The translations under genes were made by a program, and so were the position numbers. The notes below the pieces were generated by a model that was not told the DNA's origin, did no database searches, and saw only the letters and a program-made list of their open reading frames with translations. From the NCBI GenBank assembly GCA_004356805.1, contig SMXW01000045.1, positions 20,216 to 84,215 on the forward strand: a DNA stretch of 64,000 nucleotides. Reading direction: 5' to 3'. Positions 302 to 48,792 of this stretch are shown here, one piece after another. How positions within the stretch are numbered: the first letter of the stretch is position 1; each line of letters starts with the position of its first letter. This DNA comes from Acidobacteriota bacterium. GTDB lineage: Bacteria; Actinomycetota; Acidimicrobiia; Spongiisociales; ZC4RG35.

Positions 302-312
302 GGTCGGAGCCA

Positions 313-999: not shown

Positions 1000-1111
1000 G
1001 GTTGTTAGAACCGGATACGGGCCGTACAACCTGAGGTTCGCCCTTACCGGGTACGTGACCCACAGCCTGAGGTTGTTAGAACCGGATACGGGCCGTACAA
1101 CCTGAGGTTCG
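995..1111. repeat. tandem direct repeat (2 x 46 bp, period 71 bp), each unit an AGGTTGT-N20-ACAACCT stem-loop
   Basis: cctgaggttgttagaaccggatacgggccgtacaacctgaggttcg occurs at 995-1040 and 1066-1111, between convergent genes (the membrane CDS ends at 999; the moaA stop is at 1116). Confidence 0.6.
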
Positions 1112-1115
1112 GGGT

Positions 1116-2150
1116 TTAGCCGCCGATGTAGGACATTTCGACCGGTGTGCCGATGCGGGATGTCTGAGAGGAGCGAATTTCGGAGTAGCGGTCGTCGCGC
1201 TTGGCCCAGATCTCGTCGATGACCTCACCCACATCGACCCCGGACCGGAGAGCGTCGCGGAGACTGGTGCCGGACGATGCAAAAAGACATGTGTACAGCA
1301 TGCCCTCCGCCGACACCCGCGCCCTGGTGCACGCCCCGCAGAAGGGCTTGGTAACCGATGCGATCACCCCTACCTCGCCCTCGCCGTCGCGATAGCGGAA
1401 CCGTCTGGCGACTTCACCGGGGTAGTTGGCCGGAACTGGCTCCACCGGATAAGCCGAATTGATCGTATCGATGATTTCTGATGCCGGGACAACGTCGTCG
1501 AGACGCCACCCGTTGGTGTTTCCGACGTCCATGAATTCGATGAACCTGACAATATGGCCCGTCCCCCTGAAGTATTCGGCCATGTCGAGGACCGAATGCT
1601 CGTTGACGTCCCTTTGGACAACGCAGTTGACCTTCACCGGCCCGAGTCCGACTTCGACCGCGACGTCGATGGCCTCGAGGACAGTGGCAACAGGGAAACC
1701 CACATCGTTCATTCTCTGGAATGTGGGGTCGTCCATCGCGTCAAGACTCACCGTTACCCGGTCGAGCCCGGCCTCTGCCAGACCTGCCGCCTTTCGCGCC
1801 AACAGAGAGGCGTTGGTGGTAAGGGTCAGGTCGTCAACTCCACCGACCGCTGCGATGGCAGCCACCAGTTCCTCGATCCGCTTGCGTAACAACGGCTCAC
1901 CGCCGGTTATCCGAACCTTGGTGACGCCGCGGGAGACAAACGTGCGGACCAATGAGGTTATCTCCTCAAAGGTGAGCAACTGGTCCCGGGGCAGAAACAC
2001 GTGATCGGGTCCAAATACCTCTTTTGGCATGCAATAGGTGCACCGAAAATTGCAACGATCAGTGACCGAGATCCGAAGATCTCTGAGATGACGGTCAAAC
2101 TGATCGGTTACCCCTGTCATTGGATCAAGAATAAGCCGGAAGACAGACAA
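1116..2150 (-). CDS. moaA: GTP 3',8-cyclase MoaA (radical SAM)
   Basis: CNFRCTYCMP radical-SAM motif. C-terminal GG end and overall MoaA layout. 344 aa. Confidence 0.9.
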   Translation of the reverse strand: MSVFRLILDPMTGVTDQFDRHLRDLRISVTDRCNFRCTYCMPKEVFGPDHVFLPRDQLLTFEEITSLVRTFVSRGVTKVRITGGEPLLRKRIEELVAAIAAVGGVDDLTLTTNASLLARKAAGLAEAGLDRVTVSLDAMDDPTFQRMNDVGFPVATVLEAIDVAVEVGLGPVKVNCVVQRDVNEHSVLDMAEYFRGTGHIVRFIEFMDVGNTNGWRLDDVVPASEIIDTINSAYPVEPVPANYPGEVARRFRYRDGEGEVGVIASVTKPFCGACTRARVSAEGMLYTCLFASSGTSLRDALRSGVDVGEVIDEIWAKRDDRYSEIRSSQTSRIGTPVEMSYIGG

Positions 2151-2190
2151 TGGATTCGAGGTTCTCTATCACAACGCCGACAATACCGAT

Positions 2191-2553
2191 ATGGGGATCT
2201 TCAAGAAGCGCCACAAGGCCGCACAACTCAGCTCGTCCATCGAGTTCGAGCAACTGCTCACCGAGGGTAAGCCGGTTCTGGTCGACTTCATGAAATACGG
2301 CTGTCAGCCTTGTCAGATCATGGATGGCATCGTCAATGAGGTGGCCGACGAGTTCCAGGAAGAGGCCATTGTGGTCAAGGCCAACCTCGACAAGGTGCCG
2401 GACCTTTTCTCCAAGTTCAAGGTGCGATCCACACCGACCTTCGTGCTCCTGACCCCGCAAGGCAATGGTTTGCACCTGAGGTGGCGACAGTCGGGCCTGG
2501 TGAAGAAGGACGTCATGGTCACCAACGTTCAACGGGCGATAGAAAAGCTATAG
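2191..2553 (+). CDS. thioredoxin-like protein (CxxC)
   Basis: 120 aa. CQPC active-site motif in a thioredoxin-fold context (VLVDFMKYGCQPCQIM). Confidence 0.6.
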   Translation: MGIFKKRHKAAQLSSSIEFEQLLTEGKPVLVDFMKYGCQPCQIMDGIVNEVADEFQEEAIVVKANLDKVPDLFSKFKVRSTPTFVLLTPQGNGLHLRWRQSGLVKKDVMVTNVQRAIEKL

Positions 2554-18411: not shown

Positions 18412-18429
18412 TTGTGAAGTAATTCGCAG
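18412..18429. promoter_or_regulatory. candidate Rex operator (ROP-like) in the nuoA / desulfurase divergent promoter region
   Basis: TTGTGAA-gtaa-TTCGCAG. The left half is a perfect Rex half-site. The right half matches TTCACAA at 5 of 7 positions. It lies 27 bp upstream of the nuoA start. rex is encoded at 21770. Confidence 0.35.
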
Positions 18430-20486: not shown

Positions 20487-21725
20487 TCAGGGCGTCGGGA
20501 TGGTCCTGACGATGGCGGCGAGGGAGTCGTAAGCCCTTTCGCCTATCGCCTTCTCATCTTCGTCCAGGAGATTGGCCATGATTTTCAATGTCCACTCCAT
20601 GAGTGGACGGTTCTGGAGACCGGCATGCGCCAGGGTCCGCATGACGGACGGGTGTCCGATGAGCTTCACGAAGATGCGGGCCATCTTGTAATAGAGCCCG
20701 TACTCGTCGTCGAGCCGTTGCGGATACCGCTGGAGGGCCCACTTCTCGTCGTTGCCGGCGGCCTGCCCGACGTACTCGGCGGCTATACGACCCGTCTCGT
20801 AGGCGTAGGAAATGCCCTCACCATTCCAGGGGTTGATGGCGCCGGCCGCGTCACCGATCGTGATCCAGTTCGACCCGACAAGCGGGCCCTTGGAGAAAGA
20901 CATCGTCAGCTTGCCACCGACCGGCTTGGTCAGCCGTGACTCCTCAGTCAACCCCCAATACTCGGGCGCCGTGGCCACGTAGTCATTCATCATGTGGGTC
21001 GTGTTGACGTGCTTCCACCGCTTGAAGGTGGATAGAAGCCCCACGCCGACGTTTACCGTTCCGTCTCCAAGGGGAAACACCCATCCATAGCCAGGCATCG
21101 TTGCACCGGTCGAGTCCCGAAGATCCAACTGAGACTCCAGGAAGGGATCGTCCGACTTGGGCGACGAGTAGTAACCGCGGGCAGCCAGGCCCATCGGATA
21201 ATCCTTCCGTCTGGCCGTGCCCAGCTCGCGGCCAAAGCGATTCATCGACCCGTCGGCGATAATCGTCACGTCTGGCGTCAAAGTCTCTTCGTCGCCACTG
21301 TTTGCCAGGGCGACAGAAGTCAAAGTGCCCTCCTCGATGACAGGGGTGGCCGTCGTATTCTCCCGGATCAGCACGCCCTCTTTCTCGGCAAGACGAGCCA
21401 CCTGAAGGTCGAGATCCCGCCGACGCATCATCCCGCCCCAGTTGGGGAACCTGCTGTGATCGGGCCACGGCATCTCCATCATGAGGTCGTCACCGGCGTA
21501 CGAGCGGAGTCCGGCGATCTTGTGAAAGTCAGACAGGTCGAAGTCGAACCCCATCTCCTGAAGCTGCAGAATCGCACGAGGGGTCAACGCGTCACCACAG
21601 GTCTTGTCGCGGGGGTATTCCTTCTTCTCGACCAGCATGACCTCGTGGCCCGCGCGAGCCAGCCAGAAGGCAGCCGAGGAACCGGCAGGACCGCCACCGA
21701 CTATGAGAACGGAAGGGGAAGGCAT
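20487..21725 (-). CDS. geranylgeranyl reductase family FAD-dependent oxidoreductase (possibly a MenJ-like menaquinone side-chain reductase)
   Basis: VLIVGGGPAGSSAAFWLARAG dinucleotide-binding motif. CGDALTP region. The MenJ function is inferred from family and respiratory context only. Confidence 0.75.
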   Translation of the reverse strand: MPSPSVLIVGGGPAGSSAAFWLARAGHEVMLVEKKEYPRDKTCGDALTPRAILQLQEMGFDFDLSDFHKIAGLRSYAGDDLMMEMPWPDHSRFPNWGGMMRRRDLDLQVARLAEKEGVLIRENTTATPVIEEGTLTSVALANSGDEETLTPDVTIIADGSMNRFGRELGTARRKDYPMGLAARGYYSSPKSDDPFLESQLDLRDSTGATMPGYGWVFPLGDGTVNVGVGLLSTFKRWKHVNTTHMMNDYVATAPEYWGLTEESRLTKPVGGKLTMSFSKGPLVGSNWITIGDAAGAINPWNGEGISYAYETGRIAAEYVGQAAGNDEKWALQRYPQRLDDEYGLYYKMARIFVKLIGHPSVMRTLAHAGLQNRPLMEWTLKIMANLLDEDEKAIGERAYDSLAAIVRTIPTP

Positions 21726-21769: not shown

Positions 21770-22378
21770 ATGAGCGGGATCTCCCACGCCACAGTCTCCA
21801 GACTTCCTCGCTACCTTCGGCTCCTCGAGGAACTGGAGGGCGCTCACGAGACGGTGAGCTCTGATGACCTGGCAGTTGCTGCGGGGGTCAATGCCGCCAA
21901 CGTTCGGCGTGACCTTTCCGATCTCGAATTTCAGGGCACGAGAGGAGTGGGGTATTCGGTTCCCTCTTTGGGTGATCGAATAAGGAGGGAACTCGGAATC
22001 GAGAGCCGGCGACTGGTTGCCATCATCGGGGCCGGCAACCTGGGCACGGCGCTGGCACGCTACGACGGACTAGCCAAACGGGGATTCGACGTGACCGCCA
22101 TCTATGACACCGATCCCAACAGAGTCGGACAGAGCATCGGAGATGTGCAGATCCAGCGAATGGAAGACATGCCAATGGACTGCAAGGTCGGGTGTTTCGA
22201 CATGGCGATCCTGGCCGTCCCCGCCAACGCGGCCCAGAGCGTGACCGATCTCTTGGTCAAGGAAGGTGTTCACTCGATCCTCAATTTCGCACCTGTCCGA
22301 GTGAGTGTTCCCGAAGGCGTGGCAGTGCGTCAGGTCGACCTGTCGACCGAATTGCAGATTCTCAGCTACTACGGCTGA
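21770..22378 (+). CDS. rex: redox-sensing transcriptional repressor Rex
   Basis: N-terminal winged helix (TVSRLPRYLRLLEEL). Rossmann NADH-binding domain (IIGAGNLGTALA). Confidence 0.85.
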   Translation: MSGISHATVSRLPRYLRLLEELEGAHETVSSDDLAVAAGVNAANVRRDLSDLEFQGTRGVGYSVPSLGDRIRRELGIESRRLVAIIGAGNLGTALARYDGLAKRGFDVTAIYDTDPNRVGQSIGDVQIQRMEDMPMDCKVGCFDMAILAVPANAAQSVTDLLVKEGVHSILNFAPVRVSVPEGVAVRQVDLSTELQILSYYG

Positions 22379-22416: not shown

Positions 22417-22779
22417 TTATGAGTCGCCCTGCCGGGCTTCCTCGTATTGGTGGAGAGCAACAAGAAACACGAAGAAGATGACCAGAGCGACGGCCAAGAA
22501 GGTGATCGGGATCACTCGGATCTCAATGGCGTTGAGCCCTTCGATGTTGTCCGGCTTTGGCCCTCTCGGGGCGTAGATGACAAACAGCAGGGATGTGAGG
22601 CTCAGCCACCCGAACATGGCAGCCCCGGAGACCAGAAATCCGAGCTTCTTGCCCAGGTTGGTGTAGTTGAACAGATACATCGCGCCGTAAAAGAGGACAA
22701 CGGCGCCGATCGTCAGCAGGACTCCCGTAACGAAGAGGTTGGCCGAGAACAGCGATCTGAAGAGCTCACGGAAGAACAT
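22417..22779 (-). CDS. small membrane protein (3 TM), last gene of the Rieske/cyt b/cyt c operon
   Basis: 120 aa, hydrophobic. Stop-start spacing to the cytochrome c gene is 4 nt. Confidence 0.45.
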   Translation of the reverse strand: MFFRELFRSLFSANLFVTGVLLTIGAVVLFYGAMYLFNYTNLGKKLGFLVSGAAMFGWLSLTSLLFVIYAPRGPKPDNIEGLNAIEIRVIPITFLAVALVIFFVFLVALHQYEEARQGDS

Positions 22780-22782
22780 CTC

Positions 22783-24477
22783 CTACTCCTTCCCGTCCAT
22801 GTTCCCGCTACGCAGATACATCGCCAGCAGACTGAGATCCTCGGCCGAGAGAGTGGCGCCAAAAGCGGGCATCCGTCCCGACCCAAAGCCGTTCAGCCCA
22901 TAGGGCTTCTGCGACTCCGACCCTTTTATGAGGAGCTCGATCAAAAGGTCTGGCTCACTTGGGTCTTCGGGAGCCTCCCCGAACTGCACCAACTCGCGAC
23001 CGTCCCACAGCGCCGGCCCGAAACCGCCAGAACCGGCCTCCAGCGTGTAGGGAATGCCCGCACTGAAGCCTGCCGTATGACAGCGTGCGCAGTTGGCGTT
23101 GAACAGGGCGACCGCCCTGGCTGCCTCATCCACACCCGTCTCCATCGATGCGGCCACTCCCGGAATTTCGATCTCCCATTGCCCAGCGCCTTGTGCCGAG
23201 AGCAGAAACTCGAGGCCATCCTCTTCTTGGGTCCTCAGTTTGTCCTGGTTCTCGGCGGTCACCGTCGTCGTGGTGGCCACCGACTCTTGGGCGCCCACCA
23301 TCGAGCTGGCCGTCCTCTGGTCCGGCAGGCCACCGACCGATTCGGGGTTGGTTGGATTGAGTTCGATCTCCACGATTCCGGCGGGGATCGTCTTGCTACT
23401 GGCCTCCGCCATCTGACCGGTGATCGCTGCCTCTGCTTCGTCGGAGATGCCGTCGCCGTCGGTGTCGTCACCCTCACCGGCAGTCTCGAGGATGTCCTCA
23501 ATCGCAACCAGGTGAACCGCCAGAATCGGATCGCTCGGGATGGCGGCCTCCAATTGAGCCACGGCATCCTCGGCCTTCTCCGCGTCCGGGGTCGCCGGGT
23601 CGAGCGTTATCGCATCGACCACCCGGAAGTAGTCCACTGCCTGCGAAGAGATGGCCGAAAGCTCGACCTCGGCTACATCGGACAGCCCATCATCGTCTGT
23701 ATCTATCCCCACGTCGGCATTGTCGAGAACCTCACGAGCCTGGTCGGAGAGTTGGGTGATGAATGTCGAGTCCGCCGGTGCCTGTTCTATCTCGGCGAGA
23801 ACCTGGCGCTGAGAAAGGATTGCTGCGTCCACGATCTGGTCGGCATTCTCGAGACGGGCGACCTGGGTGGTCATGGCTCCTGGTGTTTTGTCGACCGCTT
23901 CCTGTTGTTTGATCTGGATCGTGCCCAGGTAGTTGACGACGTCACTGACCTGCTGCTCGTTCATCGGCCCGCCCCCGGGCAGGCCCCAGGCAGGCATGGG
24001 CGTGTTCCCACGGCCAAAGGTGATCCAGAAATTGAGCTCGGCGTCGTCATACCGGTACAGCACGTCGTTGAGGGAGGGCACCGCCCATGAGACGGTGACA
24101 CCGGAGCGCTTCTCGACATAGAAGGCAGACCCACCGACACCGAGTGGACCGTGACAGCTGAAGCAAGCGAACTCTTCGACCAGATGCTCACCACGCAACT
24201 CGGATTCGGTAGCGAAGTCCTCGACGAAGCCCTCTTGGCGGTTGGTCTCACCAAGAAAGTAGAGGGGGAGGGAAATAGCAAGGAAGGCAGAACCAACAAT
24301 GGCCGCCTTCTGGCTCTTCTCGAGTCGTCTGGTCTCCAGATGCTGGTCGTCGATTCCGGGCTGAAGGTTGTGAGCGATTTCTTCGCCGCCGCGATTGCGT
24401 AGAGCCGAGACCACCATCAGCCCTAGCCAGGCGACACCGGCGACGATCGCAAGGACGGTGATGACGTCGGCGGTCAC
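22783..24477 (-). CDS. membrane-anchored diheme c-type cytochrome (QcrC-like)
   Basis: Two CxxCH motifs (CFSCHG, CARCHT). N-terminal TM anchor. Acidic low-complexity insert. Confidence 0.75.
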   Translation of the reverse strand: MTADVITVLAIVAGVAWLGLMVVSALRNRGGEEIAHNLQPGIDDQHLETRRLEKSQKAAIVGSAFLAISLPLYFLGETNRQEGFVEDFATESELRGEHLVEEFACFSCHGPLGVGGSAFYVEKRSGVTVSWAVPSLNDVLYRYDDAELNFWITFGRGNTPMPAWGLPGGGPMNEQQVSDVVNYLGTIQIKQQEAVDKTPGAMTTQVARLENADQIVDAAILSQRQVLAEIEQAPADSTFITQLSDQAREVLDNADVGIDTDDDGLSDVAEVELSAISSQAVDYFRVVDAITLDPATPDAEKAEDAVAQLEAAIPSDPILAVHLVAIEDILETAGEGDDTDGDGISDEAEAAITGQMAEASSKTIPAGIVEIELNPTNPESVGGLPDQRTASSMVGAQESVATTTTVTAENQDKLRTQEEDGLEFLLSAQGAGQWEIEIPGVAASMETGVDEAARAVALFNANCARCHTAGFSAGIPYTLEAGSGGFGPALWDGRELVQFGEAPEDPSEPDLLIELLIKGSESQKPYGLNGFGSGRMPAFGATLSAEDLSLLAMYLRSGNMDGKE

Positions 24478-25392
24478 CTAGGCCTCTTCGTCGCCGCTGG
24501 TGGCGCCGATGCAGCTCGGACCTTGGGGGTAGTTGACGGAGAGTGCAGGGGCACGCGAGGTCTGGATGACACTGCCCGTCTTGATGATGAATCGGCCGTC
24601 TCGGACTTCTACGACAAATCGGTCGAGATTTCGCGGCGCCGGACCGGCGAAGTACTCGCCGACCGAGTTGTACTTCGATCCGTGGCAGGGGCATTCAAAG
24701 CCTTGCGAAGGCGCGCACCAGGGAACCCGACATCCAAGGTGGACGCAACGCTGAAACAGCGCCATGAGCCCGTCGGTCTCGACCTGCTTTCCTGCGTACT
24801 GATCGGAGAGAGAGGTTGGTGCCGGCACCACGTAAGCCTTGGCCTCCGGTATGAAAAGGGGGAGAATCGAACCGGTCGGTGTGAAAACCGCACTCTTCAC
24901 CTCGGCCAGGGAGCCTGCATCGATATCGGACCCGAAGCCGCCGCTCAGTCTTGGCCAGAAGAACGCAAGGGAGTTGATTCCCATTATTCCCAGGAATGAG
25001 AAGAAGGTTACGTTCAGCGCCCGGTTGAAGAACTGACGACGGGTGACACCCGCCTCCTCTGGCGAAACCTCCACAACCCTTTGTGTCTCGACAACCTGGA
25101 TCGCCACCGGGGACGGCTCCGGCTCCGCGACCCCTACCTCGACCTCGACCTCGACCTCATCACCGGTCTCTTCACCGGTCTCTTCTATCACCGGAACGGG
25201 TATCGGTTCGACCCGCACCCCGACCATCGACTTGTCGGCCTTGAGGGTCTCCGATGACACGCCTGCGGTTGGATCGACCACGTCGGCCGACTCGTCCGAC
25301 TGCGAACGTCGGAAAGCGATGGTGAATGCTCCGACTGCGCCCAGAATGGCGAAAAGAGCCACACCAACCAGAACCAGGTTGCCAAAGCTCAC
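24478..25392 (-). CDS. Rieske [2Fe-2S] iron-sulfur protein of a cytochrome bc/b6f-type complex
   Basis: CVHLGC...CPCHGS Rieske boxes. N-terminal TM, then an acidic EV/EETG repeat linker, then an internal twin-arginine-like TRRQFF segment. Confidence 0.85.
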
Positions 25393-26354
25393 TCGAAGTC
25401 CACCCAGTCCTTGAGGTCATCGAAGAAGATCCCGTCCTTCCACGGGTAAGAGAAGTTGAAACCCCTTCCCCTGAACAGGACCCCGAGGATGGTGAGGGTC
25501 GCTGCACCCGAGATGAAAATCGAATAGAGAAGGATGGCGAACTTGCGGTCGCTGGGCCGTGTCGACGGGTTGCGGTCGACAAAGGGCACCATCATGAACC
25601 CGATGATTCCGACAATGGTGGGCACGGTCACTCCAGCGATCTGCGGGTCGAAATAGCTGAGAAGCTCCTGAAGCCCGAGGAAGTACCAGGGGGCCTTTGA
25701 CGGGTTTGGTGTTGCGTTGAAGTTGGCCGGATCGAGCAGAGGCGAGTGGATTACCACCGCCATTATCACCAGAAGCGCCGTAATGGCCAGGAGGGCACCG
25801 AATTCGACGAGCATCAGGTGCGGCCACGTGTTGACCTTGTCTTGGGGCTCCGGCTTCACGTCCTGAATCGCTCGGGCCTTGACGACAGTGAGAAGACGCT
25901 GAGTCCGGACACCGTCGGGGAGACCGGTGGGCGGGACCGACGGGCGGGGACTCACCAGGCCGGCAACCTTGGCGTTATCCGTGCCGTGGTCTTCGGCGGT
26001 TGGGGAATCCTCAGGTTTGTCTTCAACAGCTACTGGACCCCGTTCTTCAACCTCCGCCGCCGCAGATGGAAAGGCCTCGTCGTCCGACGACGGGGATGCA
26101 GCCACAACCTCTTCCACAACCTCCTCTGTCGACGGCGGTGCCTCTTCCACCGGATCGTCAACCTGCTCCGCGGGGGGCTCCGACCTGCTTTGCTCGTCCG
26201 GGAAGGGTGCTTCTTCGACGATCTCTGCCTGAGGAACCTCTACCGCCGGGCCCTCGCCCTTCATCTCAGCCAACACCTGTTCCACCGGCACCCCAAGTGC
26301 CTTGGCCTTCGCCTCCGCAGATCTCCTCAGGAGACTCTCTGGGATATCAACCAC
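25389..26354 (-). CDS. cytochrome b C-terminal half (b6f subunit IV-like) with long cytoplasmic N-terminal extension
   Basis: [12 protein letters not shown] (PEWY-type motif) and 3 TM. N-terminal 190 aa are acidic/Pro-rich and begin with the shared [14 protein letters not shown] module. Confidence 0.75.
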
Positions 26355-26363
26355 AAGAACTCC

Positions 26364-27140
26364 TCATAGGGGACCCGAAATGCCGCCGTCCTTGCGGACT
26401 CGCCAGAAGTGGATGGACATGAAAATGACGATGATGAACGGAAAGAAAAGAACGTGGAGGACGTAGAAGCGAAGCAGACCCGCCGCGCTCACCTCCACGT
26501 CGGCGAGGAGAACGAACTTGACCTGATCACCAACGACCGGAACGAATCCGGCCATGTTGGTTCCGACGGTGACCGCCCAAAGTGCCAGCTGATCCCACGG
26601 CAGGAGATAGCCCGAGAAGGAGAGCAACAGTGTCAGAAACAGGAGGACCACTCCGATCACCCAGTTGAACTCGCGTGGCGGCTTGTAGGCGCCGTGATAG
26701 AAGACACGACTCATGTGAAGAAACACCGAAAGGACCATGAGGTGCGCTCCCCATCGGTGCATGTTTCGCACCAGCGACCCGAACGCAATGTCAGTGGATA
26801 GCTCCTGGATGTTGACATACGCCAGCTCGGCGGTGGGCGTGTAATAGAACATCAGAAAGATGCCGGTGATTGTCAGGTGGATGAAAAGGAAGAAGCTGAG
26901 CCCACCGAGACAGAGCGTGTAGGACAGCTTGACCGCGTGCCTCTTCACCTTCACCGGGTGGAGGTGATAGAGAACGTTGTTCATCACGACATAGGAGCGG
27001 TTTCTCGGACTATCCGAGTAGCCCTGTTTGAAGGGCGAACCGGGACGAAGAATCGCACCGACCACCTGTGAGCTCCACAGCTTGTCGTTTGTCTCTTTGA
27101 TCCGGTCCCTGAGTCCGGTTTTGCCGTTGCGGTTAGCCAA
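26364..27140 (-). CDS. cytochrome b6-like (N-terminal half of cytochrome b, bis-heme)
   Basis: Conserved heme-ligand His pairs in helices B and D (RNMHRWGAHLM...LHMSRVFYHG; FYVLHVLFFPF). 258 aa, 4 TM. Confidence 0.85.
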   Translation of the reverse strand: MANRNGKTGLRDRIKETNDKLWSSQVVGAILRPGSPFKQGYSDSPRNRSYVVMNNVLYHLHPVKVKRHAVKLSYTLCLGGLSFFLFIHLTITGIFLMFYYTPTAELAYVNIQELSTDIAFGSLVRNMHRWGAHLMVLSVFLHMSRVFYHGAYKPPREFNWVIGVVLLFLTLLLSFSGYLLPWDQLALWAVTVGTNMAGFVPVVGDQVKFVLLADVEVSAAGLLRFYVLHVLFFPFIIVIFMSIHFWRVRKDGGISGPL

Positions 27141-27157
27141 TTAGTGCGCTCCCCTCG

Positions 27158-27607
27158 CTACCAACGCATACCGTACGAGTATCCGTTCTTGAAATCACGC
27201 TGACCGGTGTCGAAGTCCCACGGGCGGCGGTCGAGGCCCAACTCGGTCGCCTGGTCTGCAAGCGAGCCTTCGAACTTGCCCAAAGAGATGACGTTGGTCG
27301 GACACCGGTCGATGCACAACGCGCATCGGGTGCACTCATCCTCATCGACGATGAAAAAGCCGAAGTTCTGGTCATCCTCGGCCGGATGGTCGACGTTGAC
27401 TCCTTCGGTGATTGCATCCAGAGACAGGTAGTGAATGCACTTCCAGGGACAGATATCGACGCAGCCTTCGCAAAGGATGCATTCCACCTGGTCGATGTGG
27501 AGGAACTGCTTGGAACGCAGCTTGTCCTTGAAATAGTCACCTTCGACCAGAGCAAGCTGATAGTCATCCCTGATCGGCGGGATCTCGTCGATGACTCCAC
27601 GGGGCAT
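27158..27607 (-). CDS. 2x[4Fe-4S] ferredoxin-type protein co-operonic with the Rieske/cyt b genes
   Basis: CILCEGCVDICP and CTRCALCIDRCP. Start MPRGVIDE overlaps the stop of the upstream membrane gene (ATGA). The upstream 123 codons of the ORF call overlap that gene out of frame. Confidence 0.7.
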   Translation of the reverse strand: MPRGVIDEIPPIRDDYQLALVEGDYFKDKLRSKQFLHIDQVECILCEGCVDICPWKCIHYLSLDAITEGVNVDHPAEDDQNFGFFIVDEDECTRCALCIDRCPTNVISLGKFEGSLADQATELGLDRRPWDFDTGQRDFKNGYSYGMRW

Positions 27608-28239
27608 CAGGCGTCTCCCTTGACCAAAGGACGCCCATATGGCGACTTCCGCTCGGACGGTTGGGCACCTGGTGGACGACCTTCCTTGATCTTCTGAATC
27701 TGAATCCCCAGAACCGCCCCGAACCCAAGCAGCACGATGTGATAACCCATCGAGATCGAGTCCTTGAGGACCGCGTAACTGATCTCGATGGTGTTGCCGA
27801 GGACGAGGGCCGGTGGGATGACGAGCGCCACTCTTTGCGACGACCAATCGAGTTCGGTCTGGGCGAAGGTGAGCCACTCTGAGGGGGCTATCCCAAAGAA
27901 GAAGAGGAGAGCGAGCCAGGTGATCATTGCCGCGACCGTGGCGCGAGCCCAGGTCATCCTCTGATTCAGAACCCAAAGAAAAGTAGCTCCGACGAGAGCG
28001 AATGTAGTGGCACCCAGAATGATCAGATAGCCGATTCCCAGCCAGACGGTGCCTCGCGGAAACCAGTTGAGGTAATCGACGGTCACCACAACATCAACGC
28101 CATCGATGAGCTCCGTCTCCGGAAAGCTCGACCAGTGGATCCAGACGACCCCGACCACCAGTCCAAGGACACCGAGAAGAAGCAATCCAGATCCGATTGC
28201 TTGGCGGCGTCTGTCGCTTAATTCTCCGAGGCGATACAT
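27607..28239 (-). CDS. membrane protein (about 5 TM), first gene of the Rieske/cyt b operon
   Basis: 210 aa, hydrophobic, no motif. Translationally coupled to the ferredoxin gene. Confidence 0.5.
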   Translation of the reverse strand: MYRLGELSDRRRQAIGSGLLLLGVLGLVVGVVWIHWSSFPETELIDGVDVVVTVDYLNWFPRGTVWLGIGYLIILGATTFALVGATFLWVLNQRMTWARATVAAMITWLALLFFFGIAPSEWLTFAQTELDWSSQRVALVIPPALVLGNTIEISYAVLKDSISMGYHIVLLGFGAVLGIQIQKIKEGRPPGAQPSERKSPYGRPLVKGDA

Positions 28240-28408
28240 GGTCAGGTGCAGTCCGGACGTGTGTAGCTGGTTGTTGGGGCGTTTCTACCACAAGCAGGGC
28301 CCTCTTAGATAACCCAACCTGTGGCACTAACTGGGGTCAATGTAGCGGCGTCGTGATTTGTGGAAGTAGTTATGCTCCCGCCCGTCTCATTTCCGACGAG
28401 GAAGACGC

Positions 28409-29845
28409 TTGGCTGATACCCCAAACTCGGACAATCGAACACTTCACGTTGTGGGAGAAGACGACAGTCGCGTCGCCGCAAATCATCTCGTAACCGGTGC
28501 CTTCTTTCTCGTGCTCGGTGGGGGTCTCCAGTTGCTCTCCCTGATGTCACTCCGTTTCGCCGACATTTTTCCCATTACTTACGGGCGTCTCGAGCCCATG
28601 GCCAACCTCACCCTGATGATCGGGTTCGTCTCCATTTCGCTGATCGGAGGCATCTACTACGTCCTTCCTCGGCTCACCGGGGCAAGGTTGAGTGTCAGCA
28701 GCCTCGCCAGGTTTGAATTGTTCGGAATCGCCGGTCTGGTGCTGGTTGGTTTGCTGGCGATCGGATTCGGGTTCGGCACAGGTGGTCAGCCGTTCGGTCT
28801 TCCGTGGTGGATCAATCTGCCGATGACCCTTCTGCTCGCCGTTCCGGCGCTGGTCACCATTGGAACCATCTCGGACCGCAGCGAGAACCGAAGCTACGTG
28901 ACTCTTTGGTTTGTCCTCGGTGGAGTAATTTGGCTGCCCCTCCTCTACCTGGCCTTCTCCTCGGGCGACCTCCCATATCTCTCATCAACTGCTGTCGCCT
29001 ACACCGACGTGTTCTTCTCCGCCGGCTTCGTCACGATGTTTCTCTTTACGGTCGGAACGGGGCTCTTCTATTACACGATGGTCAGGGAGCTCGATGTCTC
29101 CCTCGCTAGTCGCCAACTTGCCCTCGTCGGGTTTTGGTCGCTGGGATTCGCCGCGGTCTGGTGGGGAACTGCCCAACTCATGTTCGGGCCCGGACCTTCG
29201 TATCTTTCCGGTGTAGGGGCTGCCCTCGGTCTCGCGTTCCCAATCGGAGCACTGGCAAACGCAGCAAACGCATCGCTGACCCTCGAGGGCGCCTGGGACA
29301 AGGTCCGAGACAGGCCCGACCTGAGAGCCGGTGTCCTCGGTCTCTATCTCGGGGTTGGGGTGGCAGTGATGGCAGCACTTGCCGGTTTCCGGTCGATCGC
29401 ATCGGTAGCGGCGTTGACAGGCTTCTGGCAGGCCATCGAATATGCCGCCATCTCAGGGGTTGGCACTCTGCTCATCGCCAGCGTGAGCTTCTCAGCCGTC
29501 CCTCGTCTGTTTGGCAGGGAGCTTTACACGAGGAGAACGAAGACCTTCTTGACCCTGACACTCACCGGATCAGTCGGGGTTCTCGTCTTCATGGCCGCCT
29601 CCGGTCTTGTCTCGGGCTACTCATGGATCGGCGGCTCCAATTCTGGTGCCTATGTCGACGTCGGAGAAGGTTGGGGCGCCGGTTTGGGAGGGAGCGTCGA
29701 AACAATGATGTTGATCGCTGTCGGGTTCGCCATCGTCACCTTCTTCGGCCAGCTCGCCTACGCGGCCACCATCATCGGAACCGTCACGCAGGGAAAGGCC
29801 GCCACACAGGAGGTTCTTGTAGCAAAGGCCACTGTCGATGAGTGA
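28409..29845 (+). CDS. 12-TM membrane protein with heme-copper-oxidase subunit-I-like helix pattern but lacking the canonical His ligands
   Basis: 478 aa and 12 predicted helices. N-terminal ANHLVTGAFFLVLGGGLQLL and YYVLPRLTG segments resemble COX1 helices I-II and PRLN loop. Only 2 His in the whole protein. Homology is an inference. Confidence 0.5.
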   Translation: MADTPNSDNRTLHVVGEDDSRVAANHLVTGAFFLVLGGGLQLLSLMSLRFADIFPITYGRLEPMANLTLMIGFVSISLIGGIYYVLPRLTGARLSVSSLARFELFGIAGLVLVGLLAIGFGFGTGGQPFGLPWWINLPMTLLLAVPALVTIGTISDRSENRSYVTLWFVLGGVIWLPLLYLAFSSGDLPYLSSTAVAYTDVFFSAGFVTMFLFTVGTGLFYYTMVRELDVSLASRQLALVGFWSLGFAAVWWGTAQLMFGPGPSYLSGVGAALGLAFPIGALANAANASLTLEGAWDKVRDRPDLRAGVLGLYLGVGVAVMAALAGFRSIASVAALTGFWQAIEYAAISGVGTLLIASVSFSAVPRLFGRELYTRRTKTFLTLTLTGSVGVLVFMAASGLVSGYSWIGGSNSGAYVDVGEGWGAGLGGSVETMMLIAVGFAIVTFFGQLAYAATIIGTVTQGKAATQEVLVAKATVDE

Positions 29846-30590
29846 CCTTCTGGCTGCAACCTCCACCACACTCGGGGTGCCGGAGGACCTGGTGCGTCGT
29901 TCGGCCGAGGCTCGCGCCGCCGAGGCCGGCTCGAATGTCGATGAAATTCTGACCGCGTGGGGTGGAGGCGAGGCCATAGTCGTCACATCCTCTGCCGCAC
30001 CGGAACCACCTCCCTCTGTCGAAGTGAGCTCCGAGCCACCGGCTCAGCAAGAAGATGTCGCCCCTGACATCGTGATTGAGACTCCGCCGGCTCAAACCGC
30101 CCCCATGGCCACTGCTCCCCCAGGCACTTACCAGCCACCTGTCCTTGTTGGGGCGCCGGACAAACCTGGAATGATCATCCTCGGTGCGATCGGGCTGTTT
30201 CTGGTCGTCCTCATGATGGGGCTGATTGGCCCTTCGGTTGCCACAGACGAGCCTGGTTCCCGCACCAGCGAGATCCCGTACTCACAGACAGCAGTCAATG
30301 GTCAACGTGTCTATGCGTCTCTCGGATGTGCCGCCTGTCATACCCAGATGGTGCGCCCGGTCGTCGCGGATGTCGGGCTTGGGGCCGTGACCTTGAATGA
30401 CACCAATCAAGTGGTGGGAGATCGACGATTCGGGCCGGACCTCTCTGATGTGGGGACACGGATGACATCGAGTCAGTTGGAGGCGACGGTCACTGGGGAT
30501 ACCACGAAGCACCCGCCGCACAACCTGGCTCCAAAAGATATGACCGCCCTGGTTGCGTACCTTTTGGAATCAAGGAATTCGGAAGGATAG
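29838..30590 (+). CDS. membrane-anchored monoheme c-type cytochrome
   Basis: CAACH heme motif. Central TM anchor. N-terminal module LGVPEDLVRRSAEARAAEAG shared with two other proteins. Confidence 0.7.
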   Translation: MSDLLAATSTTLGVPEDLVRRSAEARAAEAGSNVDEILTAWGGGEAIVVTSSAAPEPPPSVEVSSEPPAQQEDVAPDIVIETPPAQTAPMATAPPGTYQPPVLVGAPDKPGMIILGAIGLFLVVLMMGLIGPSVATDEPGSRTSEIPYSQTAVNGQRVYASLGCAACHTQMVRPVVADVGLGAVTLNDTNQVVGDRRFGPDLSDVGTRMTSSQLEATVTGDTTKHPPHNLAPKDMTALVAYLLESRNSEG

Positions 30591-30592
30591 GG

Positions 30593-31621
30593 ATGAGCGA
30601 ATTCATCGCGACTGCCGCGGCCGCCCTGGGAATACCTGAGGATCTGGTGCAACGCTCAGCTGAGGCGAGGGCGGCCGAGACTGGAGGGTCGGTCGATGAT
30701 GTTCTGGCGGCGTGGGCCGGAGGGGGCGTGGTGGCGGCAACAACGCCCGCATCCGAACCGGCGGAAGTGACCGTTCCCGAAGAAGAGGATTCCCAGCCGG
30801 AGCCGGTTGCAGCGGCCCCGGCTGCTGTCGTGGTCGAGACTCCGACTGCGATGCCTCAGCCCACAACGAGAGCCCCGGTGCCCACCGAAGTGACACCGGG
30901 TGAGGCAGCGCACCTCCCGGAGGTGATAACCGTGCCAACCGCCGGCATCAGGGAGCAGACGAGCTTCGTCATTCCCAAGTGGCTGACGGCTGTGTTTCTC
31001 ATCGTCCCGCTGTTCGCCTTGTTTGCGCTCGGTGGTGCCTCCACCGGTGAGTGCGGCGAGGCGACCGAGTTGATGACGGACGTTGTGACCGGGAACATCG
31101 TCAATTGTGATGGGTCCGAATTCACCGGTCAGTCTGTCGGCGGGGGCGGAATCGACTACATCGCTCTGGGTGGGAGCATCTATGCGGGGGGCGCAGTAAC
31201 GGGTGTCAATTGCGCCGGGTGCCATGGGGTCAACGGTCAGGGGTCAGCCACCTTCCCGGCACTAAGCGGAGCGCTCACCACATTTGGGGCCTGCGTCGAC
31301 CACATCGTGTGGGTGGGACTTGGGTCCTCGGGATTCCAGTCAGCAGGGGAGAGCAGCTACGGCGACACCTCAAAGCCGATCGCCGGCGGTATGCCCTCAT
31401 TCAGCAGCAATCTGACCGAGGAACAGATCACGGCGGTTTCCGCTTTCGAGCGTGTCCGATTTGGCGGTGGCGACCCGGACGAGGTTCTGATCGACTGCGG
31501 TCTCGCCGAGTCCCCGGACGACGGGGAACAGGGCACGGGAGACGGTGGAGATGACTCCACGGAGAGTGACTCCACGGAGAGTGACGAAGAGACCGAGGCC
31601 TCGGTCCGTCACCTCGGCTAA
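30593..31621 (+). CDS. membrane-anchored monoheme c-type cytochrome (tandem paralog)
   Basis: CAGCHG heme motif. TM anchor. N-terminal LGIPEDLVQRSAEARAAETG module. Acidic C-terminal tail. Confidence 0.7.
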   Translation: MSEFIATAAAALGIPEDLVQRSAEARAAETGGSVDDVLAAWAGGGVVAATTPASEPAEVTVPEEEDSQPEPVAAAPAAVVVETPTAMPQPTTRAPVPTEVTPGEAAHLPEVITVPTAGIREQTSFVIPKWLTAVFLIVPLFALFALGGASTGECGEATELMTDVVTGNIVNCDGSEFTGQSVGGGGIDYIALGGSIYAGGAVTGVNCAGCHGVNGQGSATFPALSGALTTFGACVDHIVWVGLGSSGFQSAGESSYGDTSKPIAGGMPSFSSNLTEEQITAVSAFERVRFGGGDPDEVLIDCGLAESPDDGEQGTGDGGDDSTESDSTESDEETEASVRHLG

Positions 31622-46026: not shown

Positions 46027-46680
46027 TCATTTGATCAACACGATGTGAACATGTTTGGGTCCGTGAACTCCAAGGGTGAGTTGCTGCTCTATGTCGCCGG
46101 TGCGACTGGGCCCGGTAATCACCACCAGATTTGCGGTGTTTGCAACGCTTTCCGGGAATTTGTGGGCCCAATGGACCAGGGTTCGCTCCATCAAAATCAG
46201 ATCCAGGAGGGCCACATGGACCTCGGGCACGAGGCTGGCCATTCTCGGTCTTCCCGGTCGATGTTCGAGCACGACACTGCCACTCTCGGCGAGACCGGCT
46301 GTGGCTCCGGTGACGCCCAGATCCAGGTCGCGATACCCCAACTGATGCTCCATCCTGGTCTCGACAGGCACCTCCCCTTCCACCCTTGTCAGACCCGCCG
46401 CGGTGAGAGCCGAAGCCACACCGGAGGCAGGAAGATCCTCCCATGCCATGAAGGATCTGCATTGATGCCCTGCGGCGATCCCGGCCACAGCTCTAGGCAC
46501 CCCGTGTCGTCCGACCGGCCCATGAACCACGGCGTCCACGTCCTGGGCCCGTTCCCGGAACAGTGTCTGAAGATCTTCATCTTCCAAGTCGGGCAAGCGG
46601 TCGGGGATACCCAACACCTCCGGCAGGACGGCGGTCATAGCCGACCGTCCGACTCTGGCGAGAAAGACATCACGATCCAC
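46027..46680 (-). CDS. lutC: lactate utilization protein C (LUD domain, YkgG-like)
   Basis: LUD-domain pattern. Follows lutB. Start approximate (GTG 46680 or ATG 46638). Confidence 0.65.
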   Translation of the reverse strand: MDRDVFLARVGRSAMTAVLPEVLGIPDRLPDLEDEDLQTLFRERAQDVDAVVHGPVGRHGVPRAVAGIAAGHQCRSFMAWEDLPASGVASALTAAGLTRVEGEVPVETRMEHQLGYRDLDLGVTGATAGLAESGSVVLEHRPGRPRMASLVPEVHVALLDLILMERTLVHWAHKFPESVANTANLVVITGPSRTGDIEQQLTLGVHGPKHVHIVLIK

Positions 46681-48070
46681 GGTTGGTCCTCCACCATTCA
46701 GCGAACGACTCCGAGGCGGGACGTGGCAAGTCACGAAATTTCGTCCACCCTCTCCCCGGACCTGGGATCCGGCGCAGCCAGCCACCTGACGCCAAGGGGG
46801 CGCTCAGACGCGAAGCCCACTTCGTCGCCCTCCGCCATTTCTGAGGGTCCGTCGTCGTTCGGGCGTATCGGCTCATGCCTTTGTTGAGCCAACCCGGCAG
46901 TCTGCCCTCAGAAGCGGCACGTTCCCTCAGCTGGAGAAGCATCGAAGGGATTTGGATACGTATCGGGCACACTTCCTCACAGGCTCCGCACATGGTTGAT
47001 GCGTAAGGCAACTCCCACCAGGGTTCCATTCCGTGCAAGCCGGGAGTGACAATCGAACCGACTGGTCCCGAGTACACGGTGCCGTAGGCGTGACCTCCGA
47101 CGGTCTGAAAGATGGGGCAGACATTGAGACAGGCGCCACATCGGATACAGGCCAGGATCTCCGCGGTGGGACCGCCCAAGATCTCTGAGCGACCGTTGTC
47201 TATGACGACGACGTGTGACTCTTCGGGGCCGTCGGGATCGCCCTCCCTCCTCGGGCCGGTGATGACGCTGGTGTAAACGGAAAGCCTCTGCCCGGTGGCA
47301 GAGCGGGCTAGAACCTCCAGCACAACGGTGGCGTCCTCCCAGCTCGAGACGATCCTCTCCATGCCCATCAGAGCGATGTGAACTCTCGGAGCCGTCGTGG
47401 TCAGCCGGCCGTTTCCCTCGTTGGTGACCAGGACGACCGACCCTGTCTCGGCGATGGCCATGTTCACGCCGGAGATACCCGCGTCCGCACTGAGAAAGAT
47501 CTCCCTGAGATGGGCTCTGGCGATCTCGTTGAGCTCTGTCGGATCGTCGGTGTACTCGACACTCAGCTTCTCGGAGAACAGTTCACCGATGTCCTGGCGG
47601 GTCATGTGGAGTACGGGAGCGATGATGTGACTGGGCGTGTCGCCGGCAAGTTGCACGATGAACTCCCCGAGATCGGTCTCGACCACCTCCAGACCGACGC
47701 CTTCGAGGTGGTGGTTGAGCTCGATCTCCTCGGAGACCATCGACTTCGACTTCACCACGAGACTGGAGTCCGACTGTTGGAGGATTTCGGCCACGATCCG
47801 ATTCGCCTCGTCGGCATCGGCTGCGAAGTGCACTGTGCCGCCAAGAGCGGTGACCTGATCTGCGAATTGACCTAGAAGCCGGTCGAGATGACTGAGGGAG
47901 TGAAGACGGATCGCCCGCGCCCTATCGCGCAATTCCTCCATGATGGGGAACTCGGCCACGACGCGATCTCTTGCGTCATTGAAGTGCCGTATCCCCTTGA
48001 CGACCGCAGCGGCCTCTTTACTGCCGAGGAGGGCGTCGGCGCGAGTGACGAAGCTGACCGGCTGGCTCAT
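46670..48070 (-). CDS. lutB: lactate utilization protein B (4Fe-4S ferredoxin-type, YkgF-like)
   Basis: CIRCGACLNVCP and CGACEEVCP motifs plus the DUF3390-like C-terminus. Confidence 0.85.
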   Translation of the reverse strand: MSQPVSFVTRADALLGSKEAAAVVKGIRHFNDARDRVVAEFPIMEELRDRARAIRLHSLSHLDRLLGQFADQVTALGGTVHFAADADEANRIVAEILQQSDSSLVVKSKSMVSEEIELNHHLEGVGLEVVETDLGEFIVQLAGDTPSHIIAPVLHMTRQDIGELFSEKLSVEYTDDPTELNEIARAHLREIFLSADAGISGVNMAIAETGSVVLVTNEGNGRLTTTAPRVHIALMGMERIVSSWEDATVVLEVLARSATGQRLSVYTSVITGPRREGDPDGPEESHVVVIDNGRSEILGGPTAEILACIRCGACLNVCPIFQTVGGHAYGTVYSGPVGSIVTPGLHGMEPWWELPYASTMCGACEEVCPIRIQIPSMLLQLRERAASEGRLPGWLNKGMSRYARTTTDPQKWRRATKWASRLSAPLASGGWLRRIPGPGRGWTKFRDLPRPASESFAEWWRTNRGS

Positions 48071-48792
48071 ATGTCACTGCCTGCCAATAGCTCAGCAATA
48101 TGCTTGACCACCACTTTGGATCCTCTACGTCGAAGACCTCCCTCCAGGTGCATCAGACATGAGACATCGCCCGCCACGAGTGTGTCGGCGCCGGACGCCT
48201 CAACCCGATCGAGCTTCTCATCCATGATTGCAGCGGAGATGGCCGGCATCTCGATCGAGAAGAGACCCCCAAAACCACAGCATTCCTTGTCACCGTCGAG
48301 GTTCACACGGTCGACCCCCTCCAGCAATCGGTCAGCCTGGGCTTCCAACCCGAGCCCTCGCAGACCATGACATGAGTAGTGATAGGCGACCGAACATCCG
48401 TCACATGAGGCGGATGCGTCAACACCGAGATCGTCAATGAGAAACTGAGTGAGTTCGCGGGTCCGACCCGCCACCCGGTCTGCCTGATCGGCTCGATCGG
48501 TTCCTTCGAAAAGCTCGATGTAGTGGTGGGCAATCATCTGGGTACACGATCCGGACGGGACCACGATCGGACCCTCCGTGACGTCGAGGACATCAAGGGT
48601 GTGAGCAGCCATTTCTCGCGCCTGATCGGTGAGACCGACATTGAAAGCAGGCTGTCCGCAGCAGGTTTGACCCTCGGGAAAGTCCACCCGGCAACCCGAA
48701 TTCTCGAGAACCGCCAGGGTGGCACGACCCACCTGGGGTGCTAATACATCAACCAGGCAGGTGACAACAAGCTGGACTTGCGGCCATTCCAT
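48067..48792 (-). CDS. lutA: lactate utilization protein A (CCG-domain Fe-S oxidoreductase, YkgE-like)
   Basis: Two cysteine-rich CCG domains (CCGQPAF...; CCGFGG). Confidence 0.8.
   Translation of the reverse strand: MEWPQVQLVVTCLVDVLAPQVGRATLAVLENSGCRVDFPEGQTCCGQPAFNVGLTDQAREMAAHTLDVLDVTEGPIVVPSGSCTQMIAHHYIELFEGTDRADQADRVAGRTRELTQFLIDDLGVDASASCDGCSVAYHYSCHGLRGLGLEAQADRLLEGVDRVNLDGDKECCGFGGLFSIEMPAISAAIMDEKLDRVEASGADTLVAGDVSCLMHLEGGLRRRGSKVVVKHIAELLAGSDI

Follow-up and report, generated by a model that had tools for sequence, protein, structure and literature searches.

The DNA considered here is a 64-kb stretch (the window) of contig SMXW01000045.1, positions 20,216 to 84,215 of the forward strand, from a bacterium placed by GTDB in the Acidimicrobiia. 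Between positions 22417 and 28239 its minus strand carries seven tightly packed open reading frames (ORFs), identified by ORF calling and by searches of Pfam and NCBIfam, in which the genes of a Rieske/cytochrome b complex are accompanied by a gene for a ferredoxin. In the direction of transcription these encode a 210-aa membrane protein that matches no Pfam or NCBIfam family above cut-off (27607-28239), a 149-aa 2x[4Fe-4S] ferredoxin recognized from its start codon, motifs and Pfam Fer4 families (27158-27607), a 258-aa cytochrome b6 (26364-27140; Pfam Cytochrome_B, 2e-46), a 321-aa subunit-IV-like protein (25389-26354; PF00032, Cytochrom_B_C, at residues 209-292), a 304-aa Rieske [2Fe-2S] protein whose cluster domain, with CVHLGC and CPCHGSKY, is matched by Pfam and NCBIfam (24478-25392), a 564-aa dihaem class-I cytochrome c with CFSCH and CARCH motifs (22783-24477), and a 120-aa protein with three hydrophobic segments to which Pfam assigns no family (22417-22779). 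Successive junctions measure -1, 17, 9, -4, 0 and 3 nt, and the ATG of the ferredoxin gene overlaps the stop codon (TGA) of the upstream membrane-protein gene by 1 nt. A preliminary description of this DNA had listed the same seven ORFs, all of which are present where it placed them, and had put every junction at 1-10 nt, a range that the 17-nt gap between the ferredoxin and b6 genes exceeds.

The arrangement was compared with that in related genomes. A scan of one genome per species yielded at least 598 stretches encoding a relative of the ferredoxin, and the best 80 of these, nearly all labelled Acidimicrobiia, together with locus L001 form the set of 81 loci used throughout; synteny of the ferredoxin was judged only where the contig of a locus extends far enough. 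Wherever the contig reaches, the seven genes have the same order and strand in all 81 loci, and because order and strand recur in this way the operon arrangement is not due to chance. More distant ferredoxin orthologs (~35-40% identity) have the same context in loci L082, L083/84 and L087/88, where a membrane protein, the ferredoxin, b6 (with CLGG), subunit IV (with APWY), the Rieske protein, a dihaem cytochrome c and a membrane protein are encoded in succession; the contigs of L085/86, too short for a firm judgement, are compatible with the operon context, so that the order recurs in three of four distant Actinomycetota lineages. The preliminary description had named a lack of synteny between the cytochrome b genes and the ferredoxin and membrane-protein genes as one observation that would count against a common complex, and these genes are syntenic in the 81 relatives and in L082, L083 and L087.

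Cytochrome b is split into separate ORFs for a b6 with four transmembrane helices (PF00033, 258 aa) and a subunit IV with three (PF00032, 321 aa), a division with which hydropathy agrees. Searches of the PDB matched b6 with cyanobacterial and plant b6 chains at an E value of 1e-45, with bc1 cytochromes b at ~1e-34 and with actinobacterial QcrB at ~1e-21, and the protein scores 109 bits on the NCBIfam model QcrB_actino against a cut-off of 500. His128, His142, His229 and His244 align with the haem-ligand histidines of the PDB b6 chains. Cys77, in the sequence YTLCLGG, aligns with Cys35, the covalent haem-ci ligand of b6, and attachment of haem ci to Cys77 is predicted from this alignment; CLGG is found in 78 of 81 b6 orthologs, the other three ORFs giving no pattern match. 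The b6f-like architecture proposed in the preliminary description is borne out by the much better match to b6 than to QcrB and by the aligned haem-ci cysteine. On the NCBIfam model ExtP the b6 protein scores 296.7 bits, just above the cut-off of 290, with a profile match that begins at residue 52. The preceding segment is an N-terminal extension of about 50 residues on the cytoplasmic, or negative (n), side of the membrane. The first 72 residues of the protein are basic (14 K/R versus 4 D/E), and residues 31-68, which take in the start of the core, are invariant to 95% or more among 72 Acidimicrobiia orthologs. The distant loci conserve this stretch as well, and the cytochrome b of locus L089, described below, does so in part.

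The subunit-IV-like protein carries an acidic N-terminal extension of ~175 residues, made up of a motif of about 40 residues followed by an acidic linker, and then three transmembrane helices bearing the Qo motif APWY. This motif was found in 70 of 73 subunit-IV orthologs, with no pattern match in the remaining three, and matches of the protein to the NCBIfam ExtQ and subunit IV models lie below cut-off. Membership in the APWY clade is suggested here by the Qo motif. According to Kao and Hunte (2014, PMC4122944), this clade comprises cytochromes b from several phyla, none of its members having been characterized biochemically, and Ilumatobacter (Acidimicrobidae) is among five actinobacterial split cytochromes b that fall in the APWY or PEWY-cyt c clades. 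The combination of a split cytochrome b with a ferredoxin subunit had been considered atypical in the preliminary description; the split form had in fact already been published for Ilumatobacter, but that paper (PMC4122944) makes no mention of the extra subunits, and neither do the other papers searched.

The Rieske protein has an N-terminal transmembrane helix, an acidic repeat linker, a sequence resembling a twin-arginine translocation (Tat) motif (TRRQFF, residues 117-122), a second transmembrane helix and the cluster domain. The linker and the internal TRRQFF had been noticed before, and the N-terminal helix is an addition to that picture. Rieske box I is present in 68/68 orthologs and the S-Y signature (CPCHGSKY in the window copy) in 67/67, a signature which by a rule quoted in Kao and Hunte indicates a potential above 260 mV (PMC4122944). 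The dihaem cytochrome c starts with a transmembrane hairpin and has its haem domains at residues ~95-186 and 451-555; two CxxCH motifs occur in 58 of 60 complete orthologs. Its large size is due to an acidic linker of ~260 residues with a TSP3-type (Ca-binding) repeat that separates the two haem domains (window 23350-24190, minus strand), and this linker could keep a mobile second haem domain tethered. The cytochromes c of the distant loci L082 and L087 are 304-327 aa long and have no acidic linker. The match of the window protein to the QcrC_actino model is 18 bits (E 1e-3) versus a cut-off of 200. Its two haem motifs recall the heliobacterial and actinobacterial arrangement.

The two small membrane proteins at the ends of the operon are conserved. 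The first had been described as having five transmembrane helices, but its AlphaFold2 model has four long transmembrane helices and two beta-hairpins on the positive (p) side, at a moderate predicted local distance difference test (pLDDT) score of 70.8. Across 76 orthologs the basic cytoplasmic tail of this protein (SPYGRPLV) is conserved but no histidine or cysteine is, and a Foldseek comparison of the model with the PDB gave no match (best E 0.06, TM-score 0.3). Its D.ISMGY motif was also seen, by eye, in the upstream gene of the distant locus L087. The last gene of the operon is found in every locus extending that far; its product has the conserved motifs NYTNLGKKLG and YAPRGPKP, and motifs like these were seen by eye in L082 and L087, where the downstream genes are longer. 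The small membrane proteins were also considered as CCB-type haem-ci assembly factors or as cytochrome oxidase subunit III, and both assignments were rejected after Pfam and NCBIfam gave no such family at E<0.01.

Two CxxCxxCxxxCP motifs and a ninth, invariant cysteine are present in the ferredoxin, and a signal peptide, Tat motif and transmembrane helix are all absent from its sequence. It is strongly acidic, with 15 K/R versus 29 D/E (net charge about -14), and the acidic ferredoxin and basic b6 N-terminus hint at a docking surface between the two proteins. Both cluster motifs are kept in 81/81 orthologs. Identity to the window copy across the 81 loci is 68-92% for the ferredoxin, 72-89% for b6 and lower for the other subunits; the conservation of the ferredoxin thus equals that of b6, and it extends over the full length of the protein, the N- and C-terminal extensions outside the ferredoxin domain included. 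More than 120 database clusters at 73-91% identity contain the ferredoxin, those that are named being Acidimicrobiia. When 1.8 billion representatives were searched with a profile, one full-length ferredoxin cluster at the 50%-identity level came up (E 2.5e-81), along with a few more distant full-length relatives of 122-139 aa, of which the named ones are labelled "Actinomycetota bacterium". In one distant relative, P0283 (locus L093, 672-1085, plus strand), the first cluster motif is disturbed (CIQCGAGYGCVDICPW), and this protein may be a diverged paralog.

Outside the family the ferredoxin is closest to the C-terminal dicluster domains of a group of 550-700-aa proteins that combine Fer4_20, Pyr_redox_2 (FAD/NAD(P)) and Fer4 domains, referred to here as flavo-FeS proteins. 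In P0334, one such protein, the C-terminal domain shows 42% identity over 88 aa to residues 30-115 of the ferredoxin, a stretch that takes in the ~37-aa spacer separating the two motifs. The P0334 gene, in locus L089, lies directly upstream of genes for a Rieske protein, a 529-aa cytochrome b bearing APWY and an octahaem cytochrome c. The gene for another such relative, P0353, is likewise directly upstream of a Rieske gene. The window ferredoxin has Fer4 domains only, with no FAD/NAD(P)-binding or Fer4_20 domain in Pfam. By homology, then, the ferredoxin is a predicted stand-alone counterpart of the part of the flavo-FeS module that is proximal to cytochrome b. Because it has no signal peptide, Tat motif or transmembrane helix and its homologs are cytoplasmic domains, the ferredoxin is proposed to lie on the n side of the membrane. 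This fits the electron module on the cytoplasmic side suggested in the preliminary description, as does the homology to a dicluster domain of flavo-FeS subunits that other Rieske/cytochrome b operons encode. A periplasmic ferredoxin, exported through the Tat pathway by hitch-hiking with the Rieske protein, was considered as well and appears unlikely, given that the homologs are n-side domains of cytoplasmic flavoproteins.

The L089 locus itself (2-2444, plus strand), on a metagenome contig with 62% GC, has two tandem flavo-FeS genes (Fer4_20, Pyr_redox_2 and dicluster Fer4) ahead of the genes for the Rieske protein, the fused APWY cytochrome b and the octahaem cytochrome c. In the cytochrome b of this locus WGLGG replaces CLGG, so that the haem-ci cysteine is absent, while its N-terminal n-side segment is partly common with that of b6.

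Divergent from the seven-gene operon, and separated from it by a gap of 169 bp (28240-28408), is a plus-strand operon of three genes that resembles those for cbb3 oxidases. Its first gene encodes a 478-aa homolog of CcoN (28409-29845; PF00115, 1e-19) that reaches 110 bits on the ccoN model against a cut-off of 583; the second encodes a 250-aa monohaem cytochrome c (CAACH) similar to CcoO/FixO (29838-30590; PF02433, 7e-11); and the third encodes a 342-aa membrane-anchored monohaem cytochrome c (CAGCH) that Pfam and NCBIfam find weakly CcoP-like (30593-31621). The CcoN-like protein has only two histidines in its 478 residues. In an alignment with Pseudomonas stutzeri CcoN (3MK7_A), residues other than histidine, namely A, G/A, A, Q, E/I and A/Y, occupy all six positions that in CcoN hold the ligands of haem b, haem b3 and CuB. 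None of 74 complete CcoN-like orthologs has a ligand histidine, and neither do the COX1-like genes of L082 (1193-2740, minus strand) and L087 (565-1953, minus strand). The residues conserved in the CcoN-like proteins are mostly glycine, proline and tryptophan, many of them common to true CcoN. Judged from these residues, the CcoN-like protein is predicted to keep the fold; lacking the six histidines, it can bind neither haem nor copper and cannot be an oxidase. The CxxCH motif is present in 63 of 64 CcoO-like orthologs. The cbb3-like genes are linked to the b6c operon wherever a locus has sufficient flanking sequence, and in the distant loci they stay within 8 kb of it, with cytochrome c maturation genes between. 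One survey reports cbb3 in metagenome-assembled genomes of Acidimicrobiia (PMC8357290). Where metagenome surveys ascribe a cbb3 oxidase to Acidimicrobiia, and hence high-affinity oxygen respiration, they may be miscounting the CcoN-like gene.

The two operons are also linked by an N-terminal motif of ~40 residues, with the consensus G.PE.L..RSAEARAKA.G..VE.VLA.W, which is shared by subunit IV (26247-26354, minus strand), the CcoO-like protein (29862-29975, plus strand) and the 342-aa cytochrome c (30617-30730, plus strand). The three copies were located with a regular expression and a hidden Markov model, and searches of all six frames of the window and the 81 loci with both found the motif restricted to these three gene families. 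Each copy precedes an acidic or proline-rich linker and then a transmembrane helix; in the CcoO-like protein the linker is acidic and the helix is the only one, and the 342-aa cytochrome c has in addition an acidic C-terminal tail. In some lineages (e.g., L058, L070, L066 and L078) the motif occurs in two to four tandem copies. The motif matches no Pfam family at E<=10, and a protein search with a 44-aa alignment of it returned short fragments only (<=77 aa), which are uninformative about other architectures.

The core of the complex has features of several known systems. Like b6f of cyanobacteria and chloroplasts and b6c of Firmicutes and Heliobacteria, it has a b6 with four transmembrane helices, four histidines and the haem-ci cysteine, a subunit IV with three helices, and a Rieske protein of the disulfide type. 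It differs from them in that its Qo motif is APWY rather than PEWY or PDWY, in having no cytochrome f and no PetG, PetL, PetM or PetN, in the long cytoplasmic extensions of b6 and subunit IV, and in the presence of a ferredoxin gene in the operon. With the actinobacterial QcrCAB complex, known from the CIII2CIV2 supercomplex, it shares a cytochrome c with two CxxCH motifs, a Rieske protein with an internal Tat-like motif after one or more extra transmembrane helices, the presumed use of menaquinol and the lack of a soluble cytochrome c. QcrB, however, is an unsplit protein of ~540 aa with a C-terminal extension, whereas the cytochrome b of the window is split and b6-like; the gene order is b6, subunit IV, Rieske, cytochrome c rather than qcrC, qcrA, qcrB, and the haem-ci motif, the ferredoxin and the nature of the small subunits set the window complex apart as well. 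The Geobacter ExtO/ExtP/ExtQ (Cbc6) proteins of the APWY clade are similar in their split b6-type cytochrome b, their subunit IV with APWY and their CxGG haem-ci motif. In the Geobacter ext cluster, which encodes no ferredoxin, multihaem cytochromes occur together with a porin and a rhodanese, whereas the window operon adds to its core a dihaem cytochrome c of class I, the ferredoxin and the small membrane proteins; the ExtP profile, moreover, has no counterpart of the first 51 residues of the window b6.

The Kuenenia complexes Kuste4569-4574 and Kustd1480-1485, with which the window complex was compared through operon context and the architecture of domains, likewise have an iron-sulfur module at the n-side face of their Rieske/cytochrome b core. 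In planctomycetes and anammox bacteria, operons for such complexes encode NAD(P)-oxidoreductase subunits (Dibrova et al. 2017, PMC5600118), and AlphaFold3 models place these subunits on the membrane's negative side, with their clusters forming a path from haems bN/cN to FAD (PMC12954380). The anammox complexes resemble the window complex further in that a Rieske protein of the high-potential type works on menaquinol. FAD/NAD(P) and Fer4_20 domains and multihaem or HAO-like subunits are missing from the window complex, and its hosts are presumably aerobic Actinomycetota and not anammox bacteria. A literature search on b6, Rieske proteins or split cytochrome b of Acidimicrobiia found nothing beyond Kao and Hunte (2014). 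The split APWY-type b6 of Acidimicrobiia is already known, while the ferredoxin subunit appears not to have been reported before, as far as the literature was searched. The kinship of the ferredoxin with flavo-FeS proteins, the two small membrane subunits, the linked haem-less cbb3-like module and the shared N-terminal domain likewise appear to be undescribed.

The gene content, cofactor motifs, synteny and homologies set out above were observed directly, and they lead us to conclude, with moderate confidence, that the seven genes encode one b6c-type menaquinol:cytochrome c oxidoreductase of the APWY clade in which the ferredoxin is a peripheral subunit on the n side. Acidimicrobiia and related Actinomycetota probably use this complex as their main complex III. 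The position of the operon beside a Rex-like gene and the nuo genes, in the window as in L001, fits a housekeeping respiratory role. The physical association of the subunits, their topology, the direction of electron flow and the supercomplex discussed below are proposed from sequence. The ferredoxin would be held by the basic N-terminal extension of b6 together with the tails of the small membrane subunits, and its two [4Fe-4S] clusters would form a short wire from haems bH and ci to the cytoplasm. Actinobacteria use menaquinone, and Acidimicrobiia are presumed to do so too. A Rieske protein of the high-potential type operating on menaquinol should push the b-haem chain to a potential low enough to reduce a [4Fe-4S] cluster, so that part of a bifurcated electron flow would reduce a low-potential carrier in the cytoplasm. 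A similar argument has been made for the anammox complexes, in which a high-potential Rieske protein on a low-potential quinol was argued to drive haem bP very low and thereby enable reduction of a low-potential acceptor (PMC12954380). If the subunits are correctly assigned, this outward direction is slightly favoured, and then only tentatively, because an S-Y Rieske protein on menaquinol implies very low b-haem potentials.

Several observations weigh against such a complex. A homolog of the flavoprotein part was not found by tblastn in the 64-kb window or in 88 loci (+-10 kb), and no other obvious cytoplasmic partner is encoded there, which leaves the end of the proposed wire without a partner, and the distant ferredoxin relative P0283 adjoins no cytochrome b gene. 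Co-transcription would also be compatible with an assembly factor. The AlphaFold2 model of the ferredoxin is unusable (pLDDT 38.6 from a 17-sequence alignment) and so gives no haem-to-cluster distance. The b6c complexes of Firmicutes and Heliobacteria are not known to need a ferredoxin subunit. Finally, the proposal that APWY complexes run in reverse, made by Kao and Hunte (2014, PMC4122944), would conflict with a forward housekeeping role.

It is possible that the complex is as described but that the ferredoxin is an inlet, with reduced soluble ferredoxin or another low-potential cytoplasmic donor feeding electrons into haems ci and bH and menaquinone being reduced at the Qn site. The complex would then contain a built-in ferredoxin:quinone reductase, comparable to an activity long postulated for b6f in cyclic electron flow. 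In b6f the interaction with ferredoxin and FNR is transient and debated, and haem cn has been proposed to accept electrons from ferredoxins (PMC5600118). Conservation of the haem-ci cysteine agrees with such a route, which was suggested in the preliminary description, and the reaction would be downhill and need no special tuning. The S-Y signature in 67/67 Rieske proteins, on the other hand, suggests a b chain of very low potential, which would favour outflow over inflow from donors at the level of NAD(P)H, and no donor enzyme is encoded nearby. Inward flow from the ferredoxin through haem ci to menaquinone is nearly as likely as outward flow, though doubtful when considered by itself, and as an account of the whole locus we consider the inlet rather unlikely. 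Alternatively, the ferredoxin, with or without the small membrane proteins, could be a co-transcribed assembly or maturation factor, acting in attachment of haem ci or on the Rieske cluster, or a redox sensor. Membership in an operon is insufficient to establish membership in a complex, the small membrane proteins have no cofactor ligands, and structure prediction and search gave no support for a subunit role. Conservation of the ferredoxin equal to that of b6 over its whole length is nevertheless unusual for assembly factors, its homologs are domains of catalytic flavo-FeS subunits in other Rieske/cytochrome b operons, and neither CCB-type nor other assembly families were found in the membrane proteins at E<0.01. 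Firmicutes, moreover, are not known to need a protein of this kind for attaching haem ci. We regard an assembly or sensory role as improbable.

Still less probable is that the locus encodes an accessory, reverse-running or otherwise specialized APWY complex, the true complex III being a canonical QcrCAB encoded elsewhere. Many organisms do carry several Rieske/cytochrome b complexes, and APWY has been argued to mark reverse operation (PMC4122944). Against this stands the occurrence of the locus in at least 598 species-representative stretches, beside nuo and the Rex-like gene, and qcr or cta genes were not found within the 64-kb window. Full-length cytochrome b is, according to PMC4122944, characteristic of the Actinobacteridae, while the Acidimicrobidae strain is listed there with the split form only. 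The proximity of the cbb3-like genes raises the further idea that the first membrane protein and the ferredoxin are a split cupric reductase of the CcoG/FixG type serving that operon, as the gene pair has the b genes on one side and the cbb3-like genes on the other and some ferredoxin orthologs have a precomputed Fer4_18 match. CcoG is a protein with several transmembrane helices and two [4Fe-4S] clusters that is needed for cbb3 biogenesis. The CcoN-like protein, however, has no CuB ligands and hence no need for copper, neither window protein matches a family of the FixG type (Fer4_18, Fer4_5 or FixG_C) at E<0.01, and the nearest homologs of the ferredoxin are linked to Rieske/cytochrome b genes. 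In L082 and L087, furthermore, maturation genes separate the COX1-like genes from the operon, while the membrane protein and ferredoxin genes stay with b6. A split CcoG was rejected on the copper-less CcoN-like protein, the lack of a FixG family and the retained synteny with b6, and we consider it very improbable.

The proposed oxidoreductase with its n-side ferredoxin may form part of a larger assembly. The cbb3-like proteins share with CcoNOP the CcoN fold of 12 transmembrane helices, a monohaem cytochrome c of the FixO/CcoO type and a further anchored cytochrome c; they differ in that neither the window protein nor 76 relatives have the six histidines, in that the third subunit carries a single haem, and in that both cytochromes bear the N-terminal motif. 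The placement of a complex III beside a cbb3 module recalls the bc1-cbb3 (CIII2CIV) supercomplex of Rhodobacter (PDB 6XKW). One may speculate that a haem-less shell anchors the cytochromes c in a supercomplex in which the motif tethers the modules to each other or to a common partner. The haem-less CcoN-like protein and the two anchored cytochromes c probably serve as a cofactor-poor scaffold, or an electron relay, on the same supercomplex, and the shared motif may join the two modules, or bind their common partner, on the cytoplasmic side. The full combination, in which quinol-based bifurcation has a permanently bound two-cluster ferredoxin as its outlet and the complex sits in a supercomplex with a cofactor-less cbb3 shell as scaffold and the 40-aa motif as tether, we hold to be an unlikely whole.

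Photosynthesis research has long asked whether electrons can pass between ferredoxin and haem ci in b6-type complexes, the 'FQR' route of cyclic electron flow. If the assignment is correct, Ilumatobacter and other cultivable aerobes would offer a naturally occurring b6-type complex encoded together with a ferredoxin, in which the question could be tested. Minimal and without a flavin, the ferredoxin would also be related to the n-side module that has been put forward for the anammox Rieske/cytochrome b complexes. If electrons flow outward, low-potential reductant would be made in the cytoplasm of an aerobe by a complex III that goes beyond the plain Q cycle. The APWY clade is further suggested to include the housekeeping complex III of a large and environmentally abundant class, which is an ill fit with a clade that works only in reverse.

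On the other side of the operon, the minus strand between 2.6 and 18 kb of the window carries a run of ORFs with sizes fitting a nuo operon, and the equivalent genes of L001 have NuoA-D Pfam domains. A Rex-like gene (21770-22378, plus strand) is convergent with the end of the b6c operon. The ORF was assigned by synteny, as the gene at this position in L001 and L087 encodes Put_DNA-bind_N and CoA_binding domains, a pair that we take to indicate the redox-sensing repressor Rex. No Rex operator was found in the divergent region 28240-28408. A match to the Rex operator with two mismatches is present at 18412-18429 (plus strand; TTGTGAAGTAATTCGCAG); such matches are at chance level, 34 of 100 shuffles giving at least two, and the position of this one near the presumed nuo start is suggestive. 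A promoter and terminator scan of 21.7-31.9 kb found nothing that exceeds the shuffled expectation, and an Rfam scan of the window found no RNA family. Between the nuo and Rex-like genes, here and in L001, lies a gene for a putative 412-aa flavoprotein of the geranylgeranyl-reductase family (20487-21725, minus strand), which may be a menaquinone saturase similar to MenJ. Enzymes of this family can need ferredoxin as a donor, and the 412-aa protein is a candidate client of the b6c-bound ferredoxin. The 32-64 kb portion of the window contains housekeeping genes. At 46670-48792 (minus strand), unrelated to the b6c operon, a 466-aa LutB-like gene with a LUD domain and a 4Fe-4S domain lies next to a 241-aa ORF, which suggests a lactate-utilization cluster of the LutABC type.

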